Below, one piece after another: positions 5,056 to 13,514 of a DNA stretch of 25,960 nt; position 1 is the first letter of the stretch, and each line of letters starts with the position of its first letter. The position numbers and the translations under genes are program-made. The DNA is from a virus, in the UHGV virus genome UHGV-0396296; one strand, given 5' to 3'. The notes below the pieces were generated by a model. The model saw only the letters and a program-made list of their open reading frames with translations, ran no database searches and was not told the origin of the DNA.

Positions 5056-5439
5056 TCATCGTTTGTCCTCCTTTACCAGTTTTGCGTGGTTCCAGCATGT
5101 CGTGTCGCCGTTGGTACTCCAGCTTGTCTTTCCGTAATCCCACGTAAACACTTCCCCGTCTTCAAATTTCGCAAAATGTCTCGGCCACCACTCCCCACAT
5201 TCGAAATCTCTAACATATATCGGCGTATCCACAGGCACCTTGCTCCAGTCGACTTTTGGCTCTGCGTCAGCTTTGGCTCGTAACCATTTGAGTCGTGCGA
5301 CAGTACAATCAGAGCCGGTGCTATCGTCAAGAGTGCAATCATTACAGCCACGAAGGCCGCACGGGCGTAAGCTATCTCCGAAAAGCCCCCAAGGCGACGC
5401 GGCCAAAATCTCATCCAAATATTTCTCTCTATTCGTCAT
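5056..5439 (-). CDS. Hypothetical Cys-rich phage protein (127 aa)
   Basis: ORF with a GGAGAG RBS. Cys cluster CGLRGCNDC. No family recognised. Confidence 0.45.
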   Translation of the reverse strand: MTNREKYLDEILAASPWGLFGDSLRPCGLRGCNDCTLDDSTGSDCTVARLKWLRAKADAEPKVDWSKVPVDTPIYVRDFECGEWWPRHFAKFEDGEVFTWDYGKTSWSTNGDTTCWNHAKLVKEDKR

Positions 5440-5615
5440 GCCGACTCTCCTTTCTGCATCTGCCTCTCGATGTACAACTTTATCTCCTCATCGGTAAAAA
5501 ACACCTGCGATCCCACATTGAATCCCTTGATCTCTCCCCTTTTCCGCAGCCTCCACAACGTAGTCTTGCTAATTCGCAGAAGCTCCGCAGTCTCTGTCTG
5601 TGTTAATACCTGCAT
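5436..5615 (-). CDS. Excisionase-like / MerR-type HTH_17 DNA-binding protein (59 aa)
   Basis: Start chosen at ATG 5615 (MQVLTQTETAELLRISKTTLWRLRKRGEI) because it follows an AGGAGG RBS. The ORF track start at 5648 lacks an RBS. Confidence 0.55.
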   Translation of the reverse strand: MQVLTQTETAELLRISKTTLWRLRKRGEIKGFNVGSQVFFTDEEIKLYIERQMQKGESA

Positions 5616-5629
5616 AGTGTCCTCCTTTC

Positions 5630-5658
5630 TTGTCCCGCCCGACCACATATGATAAAAT
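5630..5658 (+). promoter_or_regulatory. Candidate sigma70-type promoter for the DUF4145 gene (TTGTCC-N17-TAAAAT)
   Basis: Hexamers read directly, 17-nt spacer, 25 nt upstream of ATG 5684. Diverges from the Xis-like gene. Confidence 0.35.
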
Positions 5659-5683
5659 ACGGTGGAAAGGACGGTGATAATAA

Positions 5684-7782: not shown

Positions 7783-8262
7783 ATGAGTGAATTTAATGAG
7801 AAACCTAAAAAGAAATTTTATAAGCGTTGGTGGTTTTGGCTAATAGTGGCCGTGGTAGTCATCGGCGTAGGTGGTGCCGCCGGGAGCGGCGGTGATGATC
7901 CTGCCGATACAAAAACAGCGCAAACCGAGCAAACAGAAGAAGCGACAGAGGCAACAGAAGCAACGGAAGCCCTCACGACCGGACAAAGAAATGCTCTCGG
8001 CTCCGCAGAGTCTTACCTTTCCGCTATGCCGTTCTCATATTCAGGGCTAATAGAACAGCTTGAATATGAAGGATACTCAACAGAGGACGCTACTTATGCC
8101 GCTGACAATTGTGGTGCAGATTGGAATGAACAAGCTGCGTTATCCGCAGAGGATTATTTGGATATTATGTCTTTTTCGCGCGACGGGTTAATAGAGCAGT
8201 TGGTATATGAAGGCTTTACGCAGGAACAAGCTGAATATGGTGCATCCGCTGTTGGTTATTAA
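7783..8262 (+). CDS. ltp: Ltp-family surface lipoprotein/membrane protein (superinfection-exclusion type)
   Basis: N-terminal TM segment WWFWLIVAVVVIGVGG, TEATEATEATEA linker, and two tandem Ltp repeats (AESYLSAMPFSYSGLIEQLEYEGYS...DNCGADWNEQA and AEDYLDIMSFSRDGLIEQLVYEGFT). RBS AAAGGAG. Confidence 0.75.
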   Translation: MSEFNEKPKKKFYKRWWFWLIVAVVVIGVGGAAGSGGDDPADTKTAQTEQTEEATEATEATEALTTGQRNALGSAESYLSAMPFSYSGLIEQLEYEGYSTEDATYAADNCGADWNEQAALSAEDYLDIMSFSRDGLIEQLVYEGFTQEQAEYGASAVGY

Positions 8263-8595: not shown

Positions 8596-9501
8596 ATGGA
8601 TCAAAAACCATACAAAACAATTGATGAACAAGTTGAAATTTTAAAAGACCGCGGGTTAATCATAAGTGATGAGGATTATGCAAAACGGTGTCTTACTCAA
8701 CTCAATTATTATCGTTTAAGTGGCTATACTTTGACATTACGAAAAAATAATAGCTTTTACAAAAACATAACTTTTGAAAACGTAATGGATATATATAACT
8801 TTGATCGTCAACTTAAACTTTATGTGTTAAATTATCTTGAAGACATCGAAATATCGTTGCGTACTCACATAGGTTATATTTTAGGAAGCATGGATTCAGA
8901 CAAACCAGCGTATCTTAATGCTGGTTGCTATATAAGCGATGCTCATTACAACAGAGTCCTTGAAGAACTGAAGGATGCCCTTGCTGACAGTAAAAATGAA
9001 GCCTTTGTAAAGCACCACCAGACAAAATACCGCGGAAGCCTTCCTTCATGGGTAATGGTCGAAACATTATCGTTCGGAGCGCTTTCAAGACTCTTTTCAT
9101 CGCTTAAGCAAGACATAAAATGTGACATCTGTGATGCTTATTATAACCAAATCCGCCCACAAGTTGTTGAAAATCTTCTAGAAGGTTTAGTTGTTCTTCG
9201 TAATATATGCGCTCATCATTCCCGCATATATAATCGAGGCATCCCAAACACACCTAAGATGTCTAAAGTAGATAATGATTTTTTTATAGATAATGGATAT
9301 GAGCGAAATGAAATAGGAAAAAAATTATTCTTCAGACTCGTAATCATAGACCGATTGATAGAGGATGCTAATTTTTTAAGCAAAATGATATCTGATATAG
9401 ATGCATTGTCTTATAAATATCCTTTTGTTCAACTCAGGCATTATGGTTTTAAAGCAGACTGGAAAAACATGGTTTCAGAAATTAATAAACAATATAAATA
9501 A
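8596..9501 (+). CDS. Abortive infection protein, Abi_2 family (AbiD/AbiF-like)
   Basis: 301-aa ORF. KTIDEQVEILKDRGL, LNYYRLSGYTLTLR, HHQ...LPSWVMVETLSFGALSRLF and LRNICAHHSRIYNRG match recalled hallmarks of Abi_2 proteins. The gene and its upstream region are markedly AT-rich. Confidence 0.8.
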   Translation: MDQKPYKTIDEQVEILKDRGLIISDEDYAKRCLTQLNYYRLSGYTLTLRKNNSFYKNITFENVMDIYNFDRQLKLYVLNYLEDIEISLRTHIGYILGSMDSDKPAYLNAGCYISDAHYNRVLEELKDALADSKNEAFVKHHQTKYRGSLPSWVMVETLSFGALSRLFSSLKQDIKCDICDAYYNQIRPQVVENLLEGLVVLRNICAHHSRIYNRGIPNTPKMSKVDNDFFIDNGYERNEIGKKLFFRLVIIDRLIEDANFLSKMISDIDALSYKYPFVQLRHYGFKADWKNMVSEINKQYK

Positions 9502-9621
9502 AACAAAAGCCCCCATCTCTGGGAGCTGATGTATAAGGGCTGTATGATACAACCCAGCGTCGCAACTGAATTGTATCATCTCAGCCCGAAAAAGTCAATT
9601 TTCGGGTATCTTTATGCCCTG

Positions 9622-9655
9622 AACCTAACAAATCTTTGAAAGGTTTTGTTAGGTT
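9622..9655. promoter_or_regulatory. Perfect 11-bp inverted repeat (AACCTAACAAA-N12-TTTGTTAGGTT) upstream of the integrase gene
   Basis: Read directly, 38 nt upstream of int ATG 9693. Adjacent AAGGTT direct repeats. Confidence 0.4.
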
Positions 9656-9692
9656 TTAAAAGGTTCAAGCAAGGTTTAAAGGAGATGATACA

Positions 9693-10877
9693 ATGCCAGG
9701 AACGAAACAGAAACGAGGAACAGACAGCTGGACCCTGCACGTCAGAGCCGGCACTGATTTTAGGGGAAAGCCCATAAGATATACCAAAACAGTACACTGC
9801 AAAAGCGAAGCAGCTGCAGACAGGGAACTCGCCCTGTTTTATGCAGATTGCGTAAACGGCCGGGTCAACAGATCTACACCTATAACAGTAGCAGAGCTTG
9901 CCGACCAGTGGTATGAAGAGTACGTACTGCGGCACTTAAAGGTCAGCGCCCGGCGTGGCATAGATCCCGCCATAAAGATGTGGATAAAGCCACTACTTGG
10001 AAATAAGAAGGTTTCTAAAGTACAGCGCCTCGATGTGCAAAAATGGGTAAATTACGTTTCCGATCCGCAGGAGCGTACGAACAAGAGGGGCGAAAAAGTT
10101 ATAAAGCAGCTCTCCCCTAAGACTGTACGAAATTACTACTCTGCGCTTCGCGGTATGTTTGATTTTGCGGTCGATATGGGGATCATCGAGGACACTCCCT
10201 GTAAAAATATCCGTATGCCGAAAAAGGATCATAAAGAGGCCACCTACTTTTCTATAGAGGAAGTAAATGTCCTTCTAGAAGCCCTGAGCGCCTTACAGAG
10301 CGACGAACTGCGCTACAAGGTAGCGATTTACCTCGGGCTGTTTGGCGGCCTCAGGAAAGGTGAAATAATGGGATTAAACAGAGAGGATATTAACTTTGAG
10401 CGAGGCGAAATAGCAATCCGGCGTACAAGGATGATAAAACCGAAGGAAGGCGTCTACGAAGACACGCCCAAGACGGATAAATCCATAAGGACGGTCGCCC
10501 TACCTCCGGAGGTTATGGCAGAGATCCTGTGCCTGATCGCGCAACAAAAGGAGCAGAAACTGCAGCTTCAGAACCAGTACCATGACTCCCCTGCCCTGCT
10601 CCGTAACGACCACGGGGACCCACTGTACCCGCAGGTGCTGCAGAGGTGGTTTACCCGATTCCTGGAGAAAAATGGCTTACCTCACGCTGGCCTGCATTCT
10701 CTAAGACACACACACGCCTCAATGCTCGTATATCTTGGTACGGATAAAATGCAGGTCAGCTCCAGACTGGGTCACTCTCAGCTATCGACTACGCTAAATA
10801 TTTACACGCACTTATTTGAAAACGCCGACAAAAAAATAGCGGAAGATCTGTCATCGAACTTCCTAAAAGCTCGCTAG
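9693..10877 (+). CDS. int: Tyrosine site-specific integrase (phage integrase family)
   Basis: 394-aa ORF. C-terminal catalytic signature LFGGLRKGE...HSLRHTHASMLV...LGHSQLSTTLNIYTHL (R, H-x-x-R, Y). N-terminal SAM-like region. Confidence 0.9.
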   Translation: MPGTKQKRGTDSWTLHVRAGTDFRGKPIRYTKTVHCKSEAAADRELALFYADCVNGRVNRSTPITVAELADQWYEEYVLRHLKVSARRGIDPAIKMWIKPLLGNKKVSKVQRLDVQKWVNYVSDPQERTNKRGEKVIKQLSPKTVRNYYSALRGMFDFAVDMGIIEDTPCKNIRMPKKDHKEATYFSIEEVNVLLEALSALQSDELRYKVAIYLGLFGGLRKGEIMGLNREDINFERGEIAIRRTRMIKPKEGVYEDTPKTDKSIRTVALPPEVMAEILCLIAQQKEQKLQLQNQYHDSPALLRNDHGDPLYPQVLQRWFTRFLEKNGLPHAGLHSLRHTHASMLVYLGTDKMQVSSRLGHSQLSTTLNIYTHLFENADKKIAEDLSSNFLKAR

Positions 10878-11100
10878 TTGTTGTCATCATTGTTGTCATT
10901 TTGGCGAAATATGCCGAAATGTTGCGAAACGCGTTGAACGCTCAAAGCATTGAAATTTAAACGATTTGAATGATTTTGAAAATCGCCGAAATACCCTCAG
11001 AACCGATTCGAGTCCCGTGTCCTCCGCCAGCGAAGCCCTGTAATTCCAACGGTTGCAGGGCTTTTCATTTCCGTTTGTTGTCATTTTGTTGTCAATTTGA
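10877..11100. other. Candidate attP region: flanking direct repeats TTGTTGTCATTTTG, CGAAAT/TTGAA short repeats, and a tRNA-3'-end-like core
   Basis: Direct repeats at 10877-10904 and 11074-11099. Sequence TTCGAGTCCCGTGTCCTCCGCCA (11007-11029) resembles a T-loop, acceptor 3' strand and CCA. Integrase and lysis genes converge here. Confidence 0.35.
11034..11065 (+). terminator. Hairpin plus T-run (AGCCCTG...CAGGGCT TTTT) downstream of int
   Basis: 7-bp GC-rich stem followed by TTTT, read directly. Confidence 0.4.
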
Positions 11101-11140
11101 TTTTTACTGTTATTGCAATCGAAAAAACAATTCTGTATAA

Positions 11141-11172
11141 TAAAAAAAGAGCGGTGGCAAGTCCGCCCTCTT
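11141..11172 (-). terminator. Intrinsic terminator after the small minus-strand ORF
   Basis: Minus strand reads AGAGGGCGG-loop-CCGCTCT followed by TTTTTTT. Confidence 0.45.
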
Positions 11173-11189
11173 ATGTGTGTGCCTGTCGA

Positions 11190-11333
11190 TTATTCGGCAG
11201 GTTTTTCCTTTTTTGCCATCTCCCTAACGTCTTCGATAGCCTTCTTTACTTCGTCCATATCCTTACAGGCTGCGAATTTATCGGCTACCAAATTAAGTAT
11301 CACTTCCATCTGCTTATCCGTCATATTCTCCAC
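11190..11333 (-). CDS. Small hypothetical protein (about 47 aa; ...MTDKQMEVILNLVADKFAACKDMDEVKKAIEDVREMAKKEKPAE)
   Basis: Hand-translated. Below the ORF track length cutoff. AAGGAGG RBS 5 nt before in-frame GTG 11333 (ATG at 11324). Followed by a terminator. Confidence 0.35.
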   Translation of the reverse strand: MENMTDKQMEVILNLVADKFAACKDMDEVKKAIEDVREMAKKEKPAE

Positions 11334-11393
11334 AGCGCCCTCCTTTCTCCGCTTGCCCGGTTATTACCGTCCGGTTTCCCTTTCGGTAATTAT

Positions 11394-11422
11394 AATATAC
11401 ACTATTTTTTATATTTTGTCAA
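11394..11422 (-). promoter_or_regulatory. Near-consensus promoter (TTGACA-N17-TATATT) for the small ORF
   Basis: Read on the minus strand. Spacer is similar to those of the two promoters at 11707-11805. Confidence 0.4.
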
Positions 11423-11464
11423 TGTGTTTTTATATATTATTTTATATTTTTTATACTTTTTCGT

Positions 11465-11683
11465 TTATATTATAGGCTCGCCCGTTTCTTTGTCGATGAA
11501 TTGTATTCTCAGCTCTGCGTCGAATGCCTCCGCAATTTTTTCCAATTCAGACACCTTAAACGTGTTCCGTTTGTATTTATTGTTTAAATTCTGCGGCGTT
11601 TGTCCTGTACGCCGAGCAAGTTCCGCTTCCGACATATTTCCTCTTTTAACCCTACACAGATTTATATATTCTCTGACATTCAT
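11465..11683 (-). CDS. XRE-family HTH regulator (72 aa)
   Basis: MSEAELARRTGQTPQNLNNKYKRNTF is an HTH. GGAGGT RBS 6 nt before the ATG. Confidence 0.6.
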   Translation of the reverse strand: MNVREYINLCRVKRGNMSEAELARRTGQTPQNLNNKYKRNTFKVSELEKIAEAFDAELRIQFIDKETGEPII

Positions 11684-11706
11684 ATGCTGACCTCCTTCCT
11701 CTTTTG

Positions 11707-11735
11707 ATTATACACTATATTTTATAATATGTCAA
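11707..11735 (-). promoter_or_regulatory. Consensus promoter TTGACA-N17-TATAAT driving the HTH gene
   Basis: Minus strand -35 at 11730-11735 and -10 at 11707-11712. Confidence 0.5.
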
Positions 11736-11776
11736 AAAAAGAATTTAAATAATATAAAATATTTTATAAAAAACCG

Positions 11777-11805
11777 TTGACAGAATATAAAATTACGTGT
11801 ATAAT
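11777..11805 (+). promoter_or_regulatory. Consensus promoter TTGACA-N17-TATAAT driving the small acidic ORF
   Basis: Plus strand -35 at 11777-11782 and -10 at 11800-11805. Divergent from the promoter at 11707-11735. Confidence 0.5.
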
Positions 11806-11928
11806 ATAATCACAAGGTGAGATAAGGAGGCAATACCATCTCAGTAATGCACTGGGAACAGGTGCAAAAAGAGTTGACACTATAAATAATATATGGGATA
11901 TTGTAAAAAACAAGAGGAGGATAAAAAA

Positions 11929-12162
11929 ATGAAAAAGATGTTTTTAGAAAGTAACGGCTATAACATGATAGGTTTTATATTCGAAGATAATAAAATGGTG
12001 GCATTCGATTGCGAAACATTAGAAGACGCAAAGAATATGGACTGCTCGGGCGTGGAAGGCTGCAAGAGCGCAGAAGAAGCCGCTGTGGACTGCGATACCG
12101 AAGTTTATCCGTTTATTGAAGATGAGTGGGAAAACGTTACATTTATAGAGGAAATGGAATAG
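11929..12162 (+). CDS. Small acidic Cys-containing protein (77 aa), hypothetical
   Basis: ATG 11929 lies 8 nt after GAGGAGG. The track start at 11893 has no RBS. Protein is rich in D/E. Confidence 0.5.
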   Translation: MKKMFLESNGYNMIGFIFEDNKMVAFDCETLEDAKNMDCSGVEGCKSAEEAAVDCDTEVYPFIEDEWENVTFIEEME

Positions 12163-12203
12163 CATAAAAAATCCCCGGCCTTCGCCGGGGACGCTCTATT
12201 TTA
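12163..12203. terminator. Bidirectional terminator (CCCCGGC-CTTC-GCCGGGG hairpin with A-run upstream and T-rich downstream)
   Basis: Read directly, between convergent genes. Confidence 0.55.
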
Positions 12204-12543
12204 TATATCCATCTTTGCCCACATAGTAGGGATTCCATTTTGTGCGAACCTTTACAATGGGTAATTCTTTGCATTTTTCATATATCTCTGTCCCTGTTCC
12301 GTTTCCACCAAGTCCGTGATAGCCCTGGTAGATTTCTGTAAGGGTTTCCATTTCTTCAAACGTTATTTGATCGGTTTCGATATAGAATTGGCCGTATCTG
12401 AACAGACGATCATGCCCGTTCGCCCGAACGGCTATTGTCAAGGCCCTAAATCGTCGTATCACCCATGCCAGGGTGCCAGCCGCAAAACTGGCAACCCCCG
12501 CACAAAATATCTCTATCCAATTTTCCAGTATACTTTCCCACAT
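12196..12543 (-). CDS. Membrane protein appended to the lysis cassette (N-terminal TM helix), function unknown
   Basis: ORF directly follows the endolysin stop. Hydrophobic segment WIEIFCAGVASFAAGTLAWVI. Start is either GTG 12552 or ATG 12543. Confidence 0.45.
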   Translation of the reverse strand: MWESILENWIEIFCAGVASFAAGTLAWVIRRFRALTIAVRANGHDRLFRYGQFYIETDQITFEEMETLTEIYQGYHGLGGNGTGTEIYEKCKELPIVKVRTKWNPYYVGKDGYIK

Positions 12544-12552
12544 AGGCGACAC

Positions 12553-13296
12553 CTACACATTTATATGTACAGCATTACCCATACCCGTAGTATTGGCATA
12601 TGAATAGGCAGCGCCCAGATCGTATGCCTTGGCTACTACCTGTTTCCTTCCGTCCGCTGTATCACAGATGCCAGGAATGTAGATGTCGGCAGCCCTGCCC
12701 TTCATGTGGGTGGAATTAGATGCCCCACCTACCTGTTTGTTTCTCGTGGCACATCTCTGTCCAGATGTAATAGTTATTGGTTTCCCATAATATGCACGCA
12801 GATTTTCCAGCAGATTGAGCAGCTTAGATGACGTATCTCCCGCCGGATATCCGTTGCAATATTTACCGCCACACCCGCACTTGAACTCTGATTTTGCAAA
12901 ATGCGCCGAAGAACCGCCGGAAGCTGTGCCGGCAGAACCGGAAGAACCGGAACCGCTGCGCAGCGCAGCCCACGTTGCCTGTCCAGCGCATCCGTCGGCT
13001 GTCAGGCCCAGCTTTTTCTGTACGGTCTTTATAGCTGCTGCCGTCTTCTGCCCCAGAACGCCATCGACGGTCAGCCCCGCGCCGTATTTATTTAACAGCG
13101 TCTGCAACTCCTTCGTTACCGATACAGCCTTCGCATCTGTCTTAGCTCCCCAAATGCCATCTACCGACAGGCCATAGCCATTTTGGAATTTCTTTGTAGC
13201 CGCCTTTGTCTGGGCGCCCTCTATGCCATCCAGTGCGCCTGTATAATAACCATAGTTATATTTTAGAAAATACTGTCTGTATAAAACCGATATCAT
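12553..13296 (-). CDS. Endolysin: two peptidoglycan-binding repeats plus C-terminal peptidase M15 (D-Ala-D-Ala carboxypeptidase-like) domain
   Basis: Start ATG 13296 overlaps the holin stop and follows a GGAGA RBS. PG_binding-like repeats, GSGSSGSAG linker, and SGQRCATRNKQVGGASNSTHMKGRAADIYI...NAVHINV. The track ORF extends upstream in-frame but overlaps the holin. Confidence 0.8.
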   Translation of the reverse strand: MISVLYRQYFLKYNYGYYTGALDGIEGAQTKAATKKFQNGYGLSVDGIWGAKTDAKAVSVTKELQTLLNKYGAGLTVDGVLGQKTAAAIKTVQKKLGLTADGCAGQATWAALRSGSGSSGSAGTASGGSSAHFAKSEFKCGCGGKYCNGYPAGDTSSKLLNLLENLRAYYGKPITITSGQRCATRNKQVGGASNSTHMKGRAADIYIPGICDTADGRKQVVAKAYDLGAAYSYANTTGMGNAVHINV

Positions 13297-13514
13297 TACT
13301 CTACGTCTCCTTCCTGCAATTCCGGCAGGCTGACAATACTGTTCAACAGACTCAGCACGCCGGACAGTATCGACGCCGATACTACCATTTTCCAATCCAC
13401 CGCCGCAAATACCGCAGCCGTTCCTATAGTTGCGATGGCCGTCTGCGCTACCGTGCGGATAGCACGCATACCGGCCTTCTTTATCCACGTCTTAAATTTC
13501 TCCATGTCGTTCAC
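13296..13514 (-). CDS. Holin (small two-TM protein)
   Basis: 72 aa with two hydrophobic segments (AIRTVAQTAIATIGTAAVFAAV and MVVSASILSGVLSLLNSIV) and a charged C-terminus. Immediately upstream of the endolysin. Confidence 0.7.
   Translation of the reverse strand: MNDMEKFKTWIKKAGMRAIRTVAQTAIATIGTAAVFAAVDWKMVVSASILSGVLSLLNSIVSLPELQEGDVE

Follow-up and report, generated by a model that had tools for sequence, protein, structure and literature searches.

Does the short interval behind the integrase gene of virus genome UHGV-0396296 mark one end of an integrated prophage, or is it an intact phage attachment site (attP), and which host sequence does it recognize? The DNA analyzed (25,960 nucleotides, hereafter the window) is 100% identical to ENA ERZ807510 NODE_34, a 25,989-bp contig of a short-read metagenome assembly with coverage of about 10, and represents nearly all of it. 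A tyrosine integrase gene (int, 9693-10877, plus strand, with PF00589 and PF14659 matches) converges on right-hand genes of the minus strand, as an initial annotation of this DNA had recognized. The interval that follows it (10878-11099, 222 bp) is very probably the attP of a temperate phage of the siphovirus type, sampled in unintegrated form, that infects Anaerovoracaceae-like Clostridia of the gut. This reading rests on a 23-bp core that matches the end of a host tRNA gene and on phage-host junctions located exactly at that core.

The attP core and its host tRNA gene

The core (11007-11029, plus strand; TTCGAGTCCCGTGTCCTCCGCCA) is defined by its identity to the 3' end of tRNA-Ser(GGA) and by the junction positions in related genomes. 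It comprises the T-loop (7 nucleotides), the 3' half of the T-stem (5), the acceptor stem's 3' half (7), the discriminator G, and CCA. The initial annotation had described a 23-nucleotide stretch resembling a tRNA 3' end without the rest of the tRNA, and ARAGORN indeed found no tRNA gene in the window. An Rfam scan of 10700-11300 (E ≤ 10) gave nothing beyond chance hits below threshold, and no tRNA model matched the core fragment.

A search for the 23-mer in one genome per bacterial species yielded 84 loci, in nearly all of which ARAGORN showed it to form the exact 3' terminus of a tRNA-Ser(GGA) gene. Of its 85 occurrences in these loci, 83 follow the T-stem sequence ..CGCGGG and the other two follow phage-arm sequence, which bears out the tRNA-gene target proposed earlier. 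The sequence past CCA is unrelated between host genomes. The loci belong mostly to Anaerovoracaceae and to metagenome-assembled genomes (MAGs) of unnamed Clostridia, including Emergencia, Zhenpiania, Hominibacterium, Anaerovorax, Brotomerdimonas, Mogibacterium, and Copromorpha/Allocopromorpha.

The bacterial attachment site (attB) reads CGCGGG-TTCGAGT-CCCGTG, in which the T-stem flanks the T-loop symmetrically. Phage and host sequences become identical at the first T-loop base for the window and for three related integrase lineages (P0002, P0009, and P0014, described below), and one base earlier for a fourth (P0044) and for another phage contig (L003). Crossover must occur within 11007-11029. 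Since identity starts at the first T-loop base, and a phage need supply only what lies between the crossover and the gene's end, strand exchange would take place at the T-loop, with the two halves of the T-stem as putative symmetric core sites in attB.

Phage-host junctions

All four forms of the site exist: attP (window and L002), attB (many genomes), attL (L062), and attR (L104 and L088/L089). In an alignment of attP, attL, and attR sequences, 11007-11029 is the sole invariant block. L062, from a Candidatus Allocopromorpha excrementipullorum MAG, contains host thiamine biosynthesis (thi) and transporter genes, an intact tRNA-Ser(GGA) gene, and then window positions 11007-11214 at 98% identity. 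Homology to the window starts exactly at 11007 and includes a terminator-like hairpin and both copies of the repeat TTGTTGTCA located on this side of the core; a homologue of the protein encoded at 12196-12552 lies beyond.

The opposite end is seen in L104, where the integrase is 100% identical in protein sequence and the DNA is 98.96% identical to window positions 9502-11029. Homology ends exactly at 11029, beyond which are a different (host) terminator and a MerR gene. In L088 and L089 (contigs of 271 kb and 152 kb, respectively), the integrase is 95% identical, and early genes, int, and the int-proximal arm of the site (P arm) are common with the window. Both contigs break at 11029 into one shared host flank encoding MerR, GPP34, amidohydrolase, and MFS transporters. 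The initial annotation had suggested a search for the core at prophage ends of related genomes and had regarded junctions elsewhere in the genome as an argument against its reading; the core is present at these ends, with attL starting at 11007 and attR ending at 11029, and the junctions fall at the predicted core.

Displaced tRNA fragments beside integrase genes are typical of prophage ends, and such ends occur in L088, L090, and L104. The window might accordingly be part of an integrated prophage, with the tRNA-like stretch as attL or attR and host DNA on one side. However, the left flank consists entirely of phage genes (those for the integrase, Abi, Ltp, and ImmA proteins, the repressor, and early functions), as does the right flank (accessory, endolysin, holin, tail, tape measure, and major head genes). 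Integrated relatives lose homology to the window exactly at the core, with host genes beyond, and L062 has an intact host tRNA gene fused to the right flank seen in the window. These junction comparisons refute a prophage end, which we regard as highly improbable. Because phage DNA lies on either side of the site and the contig from which the window derives has phage genes at both ends and no host DNA, the window holds an unrecombined attP; the gene order is that of a free phage rather than an integrated prophage, as had been proposed. The unrecombined attP and the phage DNA at both contig ends indicate that the phage was sampled as free or excised DNA.

The same flanks could in principle be brought together at the junction of tandem prophage copies, since an intact attP lies between the copies in a tandem double lysogen, or by a misjoin of attL and attR through the 23-bp core during assembly of a short-read metagenome contig (coverage about 10 for NODE_34). 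Against this, the same join of int, attP, and lysis region was assembled independently in L002 (a 35.3-kb IMG/VR contig), L092 to L094, L096, L099, and L100. A 23-bp repeat also falls below the usual length of the k-mers that determine final contigs. A tandem or misjoined origin is improbable, and the site would still be attP, with the same mechanism, in either case.

Phages do carry tRNA genes, and a tRNA-Ser(GGA) gene with the same 3' end is present on a 264-kb IMG/VR contig (L001). The tRNA-like stretch might therefore be the remnant of a decayed phage-encoded tRNA gene with no role in integration. Only the part from T-loop to CCA is present, however, and it is invariant across lineages with different flanks, while phage-host junctions are located exactly at both of its ends. 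The junction data refute a decayed tRNA gene, an origin to which we attach almost no probability.

Several observations count against an unintegrated attP used in the way proposed here. The attL and attR of one prophage occur on no single contig, and the matched forms come from different samples and strains. For neither L088 nor L104 was an empty attB recovered from the host strain itself. Within attP, the left half-site of the core (AACCGA) fits the T-stem poorly, which leaves the core site with weak symmetry, although symmetry is expected of tyrosine recombinase sites. Pfam names no arm-binding domain in integrase residues 1 to 69. Finally, virion DNA, an excised circle, and a tandem double lysogen fit the data alike.

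Scans of IMG/VR gave no hits for an attL-specific pattern and L002 only for a pattern of P arm plus core, and neither scan revealed both ends of a prophage on one contig. Among the genome loci, no clean match turned up for an empty attB with the host flanks of L042 and L088; the only candidates were L034, in which the gene does not adjoin the tRNA, and L005, with 78% identity and the tRNA in the opposite local orientation.

Arm sequences and terminators

The core is embedded in repeats, as the initial annotation had noted for both edges of the interval. The int stop codon occupies 10875-10877, and the first repeat begins at the next base. In the P arm, a repeat search identified two direct copies of TTGTTGTCAT with 12-nucleotide spacing (10878-10899, plus strand), and in the opposite arm (P'), TTGTTGTCAT and TTGTTGTCAA with 11-nucleotide spacing (11075-11099, plus strand). 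The shared motif TTGTTGTCA starts at 10878, 10890, 11075, and 11086, always on the plus strand and followed by T or A. Four of its five copies in the window lie in attP. The expected count is 0.24, and no shuffle out of 100 contained as many as five. Both arms also contain the 14-mer TTGTTGTCATTTTG (10890-10903 and 11075-11088), and the P'-arm pair has the same orientation as the P-arm pair and is kept in the attL of L062. The paired TTGTTGTCAT repeats would serve as arm-type sites for the N-terminal domain of the integrase.

The central P arm (10904-11006, plus strand) is distinguished by short repeats and by its near-invariance among lineages. GAAAT, CGAAA, and TTGAA each occur four times in 10878-11006, an enrichment matched by only ∼0.1% of window stretches of the same size, in agreement with the many CGAAAT/TTGAA repeats reported previously. 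Copies of GAAAT or GAAAC start at 10906, 10916, 10926, 10952, and 10988, and copies of TTGAA start at 10934, 10950, 10966, and 10976. This region may bind an excisionase and/or a DNA-bending host protein.

A feature unmentioned in the initial annotation is an intrinsic-terminator-like hairpin (11032-11072, plus strand) that begins 2 nucleotides past CCA. Its 14-bp stem (11032-11045 paired with 11051-11064) is followed by UUUUCAUUU, and its folding energy is −19.8 kcal/mol (z = −2.4). A hairpin and T-run of other sequence are present at the same place in the P' arm of every lineage and in every host flank (B') examined. The hairpin would terminate transcription of the rebuilt tRNA-Ser after integration, and it is downstream of int as well in unintegrated phage DNA.

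Beyond the P'-arm repeats is a conserved block (11113-11214) with a promoter-like site on the plus strand (TTGCAA-17-TATAAT) and two strong hairpins (11147-11172 and 11181-11202; −27.2 kcal/mol, z = −5.0). As far as 11214, the sequence is 98% identical in L002 and L062, and homology ends there, at a mosaic boundary. The two hairpins are probably back-to-back terminators shielding attP from convergent transcription; alternatively, the block could encode a transcript of about 60 nucleotides.

The integrase

The integrase (394 amino acids [aa]) matches PF14659 and PF00589 (the latter with E = 2.3e-23 in Pfam) and the phrog_1 integrase family (6e-75). Catalytic residues R221, H335, R338, H361, and Y371 are invariant across 39 homologues, and the box II HxxR motif and the IYTH tyrosine are conserved both in the homologues and in alignment to 3nkh. 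In the AlphaFold model (pLDDT 87.5), a unit of three strands plus a helix at the N terminus precedes the core-binding and catalytic domains. The N-terminal unit spans residues 3 to 54 (strands 3-7, 13-21, and 27-34; helix 39-54) and is modeled with pLDDT of 80 to 91. This fold agrees with a putative arm-binding domain. The role is unproven, since Pfam has no name for the domain and the predicted fold is its sole support.

In Foldseek searches, the model matched Tn1549 Int best (E = 2.5e-16; TM score, 0.64 to 0.80), and full-length lambda Int aligned over 376 to 386 columns, nearly the whole of the three predicted domains. By sequence, the top structure match is 3nkh, with the Tn1549 entries next. 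Among deposited phages, the integrase has matches of ≤33% identity only and no named relative, and a megablast search with window positions 9600-12600 gave no DNA match. On these two grounds, the phage and its integrase lineage are considered previously undescribed; the mechanism is thoroughly known.

Related integrase lineages

Four related integrase lineages, 54 to 89% identical to that of the window, all target tRNA-Ser(GGA). Lineage P0002 (89%) is represented in attP form by L092 to L094 and in integrated form by L090 and L091, the latter being the same as L042; its arm repeat is TTTGTCGTAAA. P0009 (67%) is known in attP form from L099, with arm repeat TTTTCCGTAA(A). P0014 (61%; arm repeat TTTTCCGTAAA) occurs in attP form in L096 and integrated in L095, L097, and L098, and P0044 (54%; arm repeat TTTACGCCAAA) occurs in attP form in L100 and integrated in L101 and L102. 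The two forms of P0002 break at the core: the attP form adjoins the lysis cassette, and the integrated form adjoins host genes encoding Glu-synthase-like, ABC transporter, and Mur ligase proteins. Ends of the attR type, consisting of int, the P arm, the 23-nucleotide fragment, and host genes, are also present in L090 and L091.

The architecture of the site is common to all lineages, with two direct repeats immediately after the int stop codon, a lineage-specific terminator hairpin directly after CCA, and two further repeats past it. The arm repeat varies by lineage yet is identical on both arms of each phage, the pattern to be expected if a single protein domain reads the arm-type sites. The window, P0002, and P0009 have a nearly invariant central P arm, despite different arm repeats and integrases that are 67 to 89% identical. 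In P0044 (L100 to L102), the core is inverted relative to int and has a one-base variant (CCCAT for CCCGT), so that int in the lysogen lies beside the intact tRNA rather than the displaced fragment.

Besides int and attP, the only DNA that the window has in common with P0002-lineage phages is an HTH_17 segment (window positions 5446-5679, 84% identity). It coincides with a gene for a 70-aa HTH_17 protein (5436-5648, minus strand; PF12728, E = 1.3e-12), a candidate excisionase (recombination directionality factor). This sharing, together with the near-invariant central P arm, points to the HTH_17 protein as the putative cognate excisionase, which would probably bind the central P arm.

A broader reading, which is speculative and rather doubtful, would treat int, attP, and the HTH_17 gene as a portable module swapped between unrelated phage backbones, with its parts evolving at different rates: the central P arm almost frozen, the arm repeats and integrase N-terminal domain respecified together, and the core flipped in P0044. 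It would further allow that the block at 11113-11214 encodes a small RNA beside the rebuilt tRNA in lysogens.

The related integrases form a natural series with one core and different arm repeats, which could serve the study or engineering of arm-site specificity and could provide integration tools for poorly tractable anaerobes. The junctions also fix exact prophage boundaries for the annotation of related prophages, and the core ties an uncultivated gut phage to its hosts, namely, Anaerovoracaceae-like Clostridia with this tRNA-Ser(GGA) 3' end, one lysogen being a Candidatus Allocopromorpha MAG. No concept is changed, as integration at a tRNA 3' end with restoration of the gene is textbook biology.

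Proposed integration mechanism and comparison with known systems

In the proposed mechanism, a lambda-type tyrosine integrase would recombine the core at 11007-11029 with the identical 3' end of host tRNA-Ser(GGA), with strand exchange probably at the T-loop (T-loop sublocation). Integration would join the host 5' part of the tRNA gene to a 3' part supplied by the phage, and the phage terminator would follow. The rebuilt gene (attL) would form the lysis/accessory-gene end of the prophage, and attR, next to int, would contain the displaced 23-bp tRNA fragment followed by the former host terminator. The integrase N-terminal domain is predicted to bind the paired TTGTTGTCAT repeats on both arms, and the GAAAT/TTGAA-rich P arm may bind the HTH_17 excisionase and/or a bending protein. 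The sequences themselves show the identity of the core, the exact junctions, and the existence of all four att forms; we infer both the cleavage positions and this pairing of proteins with repeats.

A regenerated target and a displaced fragment are the general principle of integration into tRNA genes (tDNA) (Islander database, PMC4383910). Like other tDNA-targeting elements, the phage carries the 3' part of the tRNA and restores the gene on insertion, and the regenerated tRNA and displaced fragment mark the prophage ends, seen here on separate contigs. Sublocations of tDNA-targeting integrases, including that at the T-loop, follow the Williams 2002 classification, as summarized in a later preprint (bioRxiv 10.1101/2020.11.02.365908); the Islander database is also built on this classification. 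The site resembles the T-loop class in that the identity block extends from the T-loop to the CCA end and the sublocation is common to related integrases. Unlike known tDNA systems, this integrase clade, its host group, and the tRNA-Ser(GGA) target have no characterized representative among the deposited phages searched.

The layout of the phage lambda site used for comparison is established knowledge. As in lambda, attP measures ∼220 to 240 bp, its P arm being long and its P' arm short; both arms bear clustered direct repeats distinct from the core, and int immediately adjoins attP. The predicted three-domain integrase and the small HTH excisionase candidate would be further similarities. Unlike that of lambda, the core lies in a tRNA gene rather than between gal and bio, and the arms contain 2 + 2 putative arm-type repeats rather than 2 + 3. 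Sites of the IHF/Fis type, present in lambda, were not identified here.

The closest solved structures (6emy and 6en2) belong to the Tn1549/Tn916 family, with which the window integrase shares the fold of the core-binding and catalytic domains. Integrases of this family are those of conjugative transposons and have relaxed target choice, whereas the window integrase is site specific for a tRNA gene and is encoded by a phage.

Flanking genes

The initial annotation had described an interval of ∼220 bp facing the lysis genes. The length agrees with that of attP (222 bp), but the noncoding gap is about 310 bp, the first minus-strand open reading frame (ORF) after the integrase gene (47 aa) being at 11190-11333. 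The lysis genes do not face int directly, as had been assumed; the endolysin and holin genes are 1.5 to 2.5 kb away, with small accessory genes between.

This accessory slot between attP and the lysis cassette (11190-12552) also contains genes for a 72-aa HTH protein (11465-11683, minus strand), an 89-aa ORF (11893-12162, plus strand), and a phrog_4105 protein (12196-12552, minus strand). Positions 11215-12190 are absent from L062 and L092, in which the homologue of the phrog_4105 gene abuts P'. Such a slot beside attP is a typical accessory ("moron") position. The lysis cassette (12553-13514, minus strand) encodes an endolysin with PG_binding_1 and Peptidase_M15 domains (12553-13488) and an r1t-type holin identified by domain and phrog matches (13296-13514), and further minus-strand genes encode tail proteins, an 862-aa tape measure protein, and the major head protein.

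Upstream of int and on the same strand are genes for an Abi_2 abortive-infection protein (8596-9501), an Ltp-type surface lipoprotein associated with superinfection exclusion (7783-8262), an ImmA-type M78 peptidase, and a cI-like repressor, with the Abi_2 and Ltp genes located between the immunity genes and int. Divergent early genes on the minus strand encode Cro-like, HTH_17, and Sak annealing proteins, among others. The cI-like, ImmA, Cro-like, and HTH_17 genes constitute a standard lysogeny module. In relatives, the slot between the immunity genes and int carries other cargo, namely, T5orf172/MUG113 (L088), DUF3800 and HSDR_N (L090), and NYN and PemK-like (L100) genes.

A minus-strand early gene contains a 27-bp tandem repeat (GCTGCGCTCTGGTCGCCGGTGTTTGTC) at 166-350 (6.9 copies, 95% match). 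In the related L088/L089 prophage, the array of this unit is much longer (at about 672-1426 in L088), indicating that the copy number of an in-frame 9-residue repeat varies between close relatives.

Other occurrences of the core

Three further loci contain the core or the tRNA gene from which it derives. Contig L001 (IMGVR_UViG_3300018080_000099, 264 kb) encodes a complete tRNA-Ser(GGA) with the same 23-nucleotide 3' end at 2842-2926 and is either a jumbo phage with a tRNA gene or host DNA inside a viral collection. Phage contig L003 (IMGVR_UViG_3300020112_000096) contains, at 560-800, the core plus one base (24 nucleotides) followed by its own terminator. Its repeats are of the GACAAC type, with left-arm copies inverted relative to TTGTTGTCAT of the window, and the 4 kb examined revealed no integrase belonging to the clade seen in the window.

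In Anaerovorax odorimutans (NZ_JANFXK010000002.1; L067, 3150-5000), an intact tRNA-Ser(GGA) gene is followed by a 19-nucleotide partial core with a terminator, a 338-aa gene, possibly YhcG/PD-(D/E)XK-like by the look of its sequence, a P-arm-like pair of TGGTGTAAA repeats, and a full second core with the same terminator. With two cores 1.7 kb apart, the locus was considered as a small integrated element, which was rejected because an integrase is absent; for the same reason, it looks like a set of decayed att scars at an integration hot spot.

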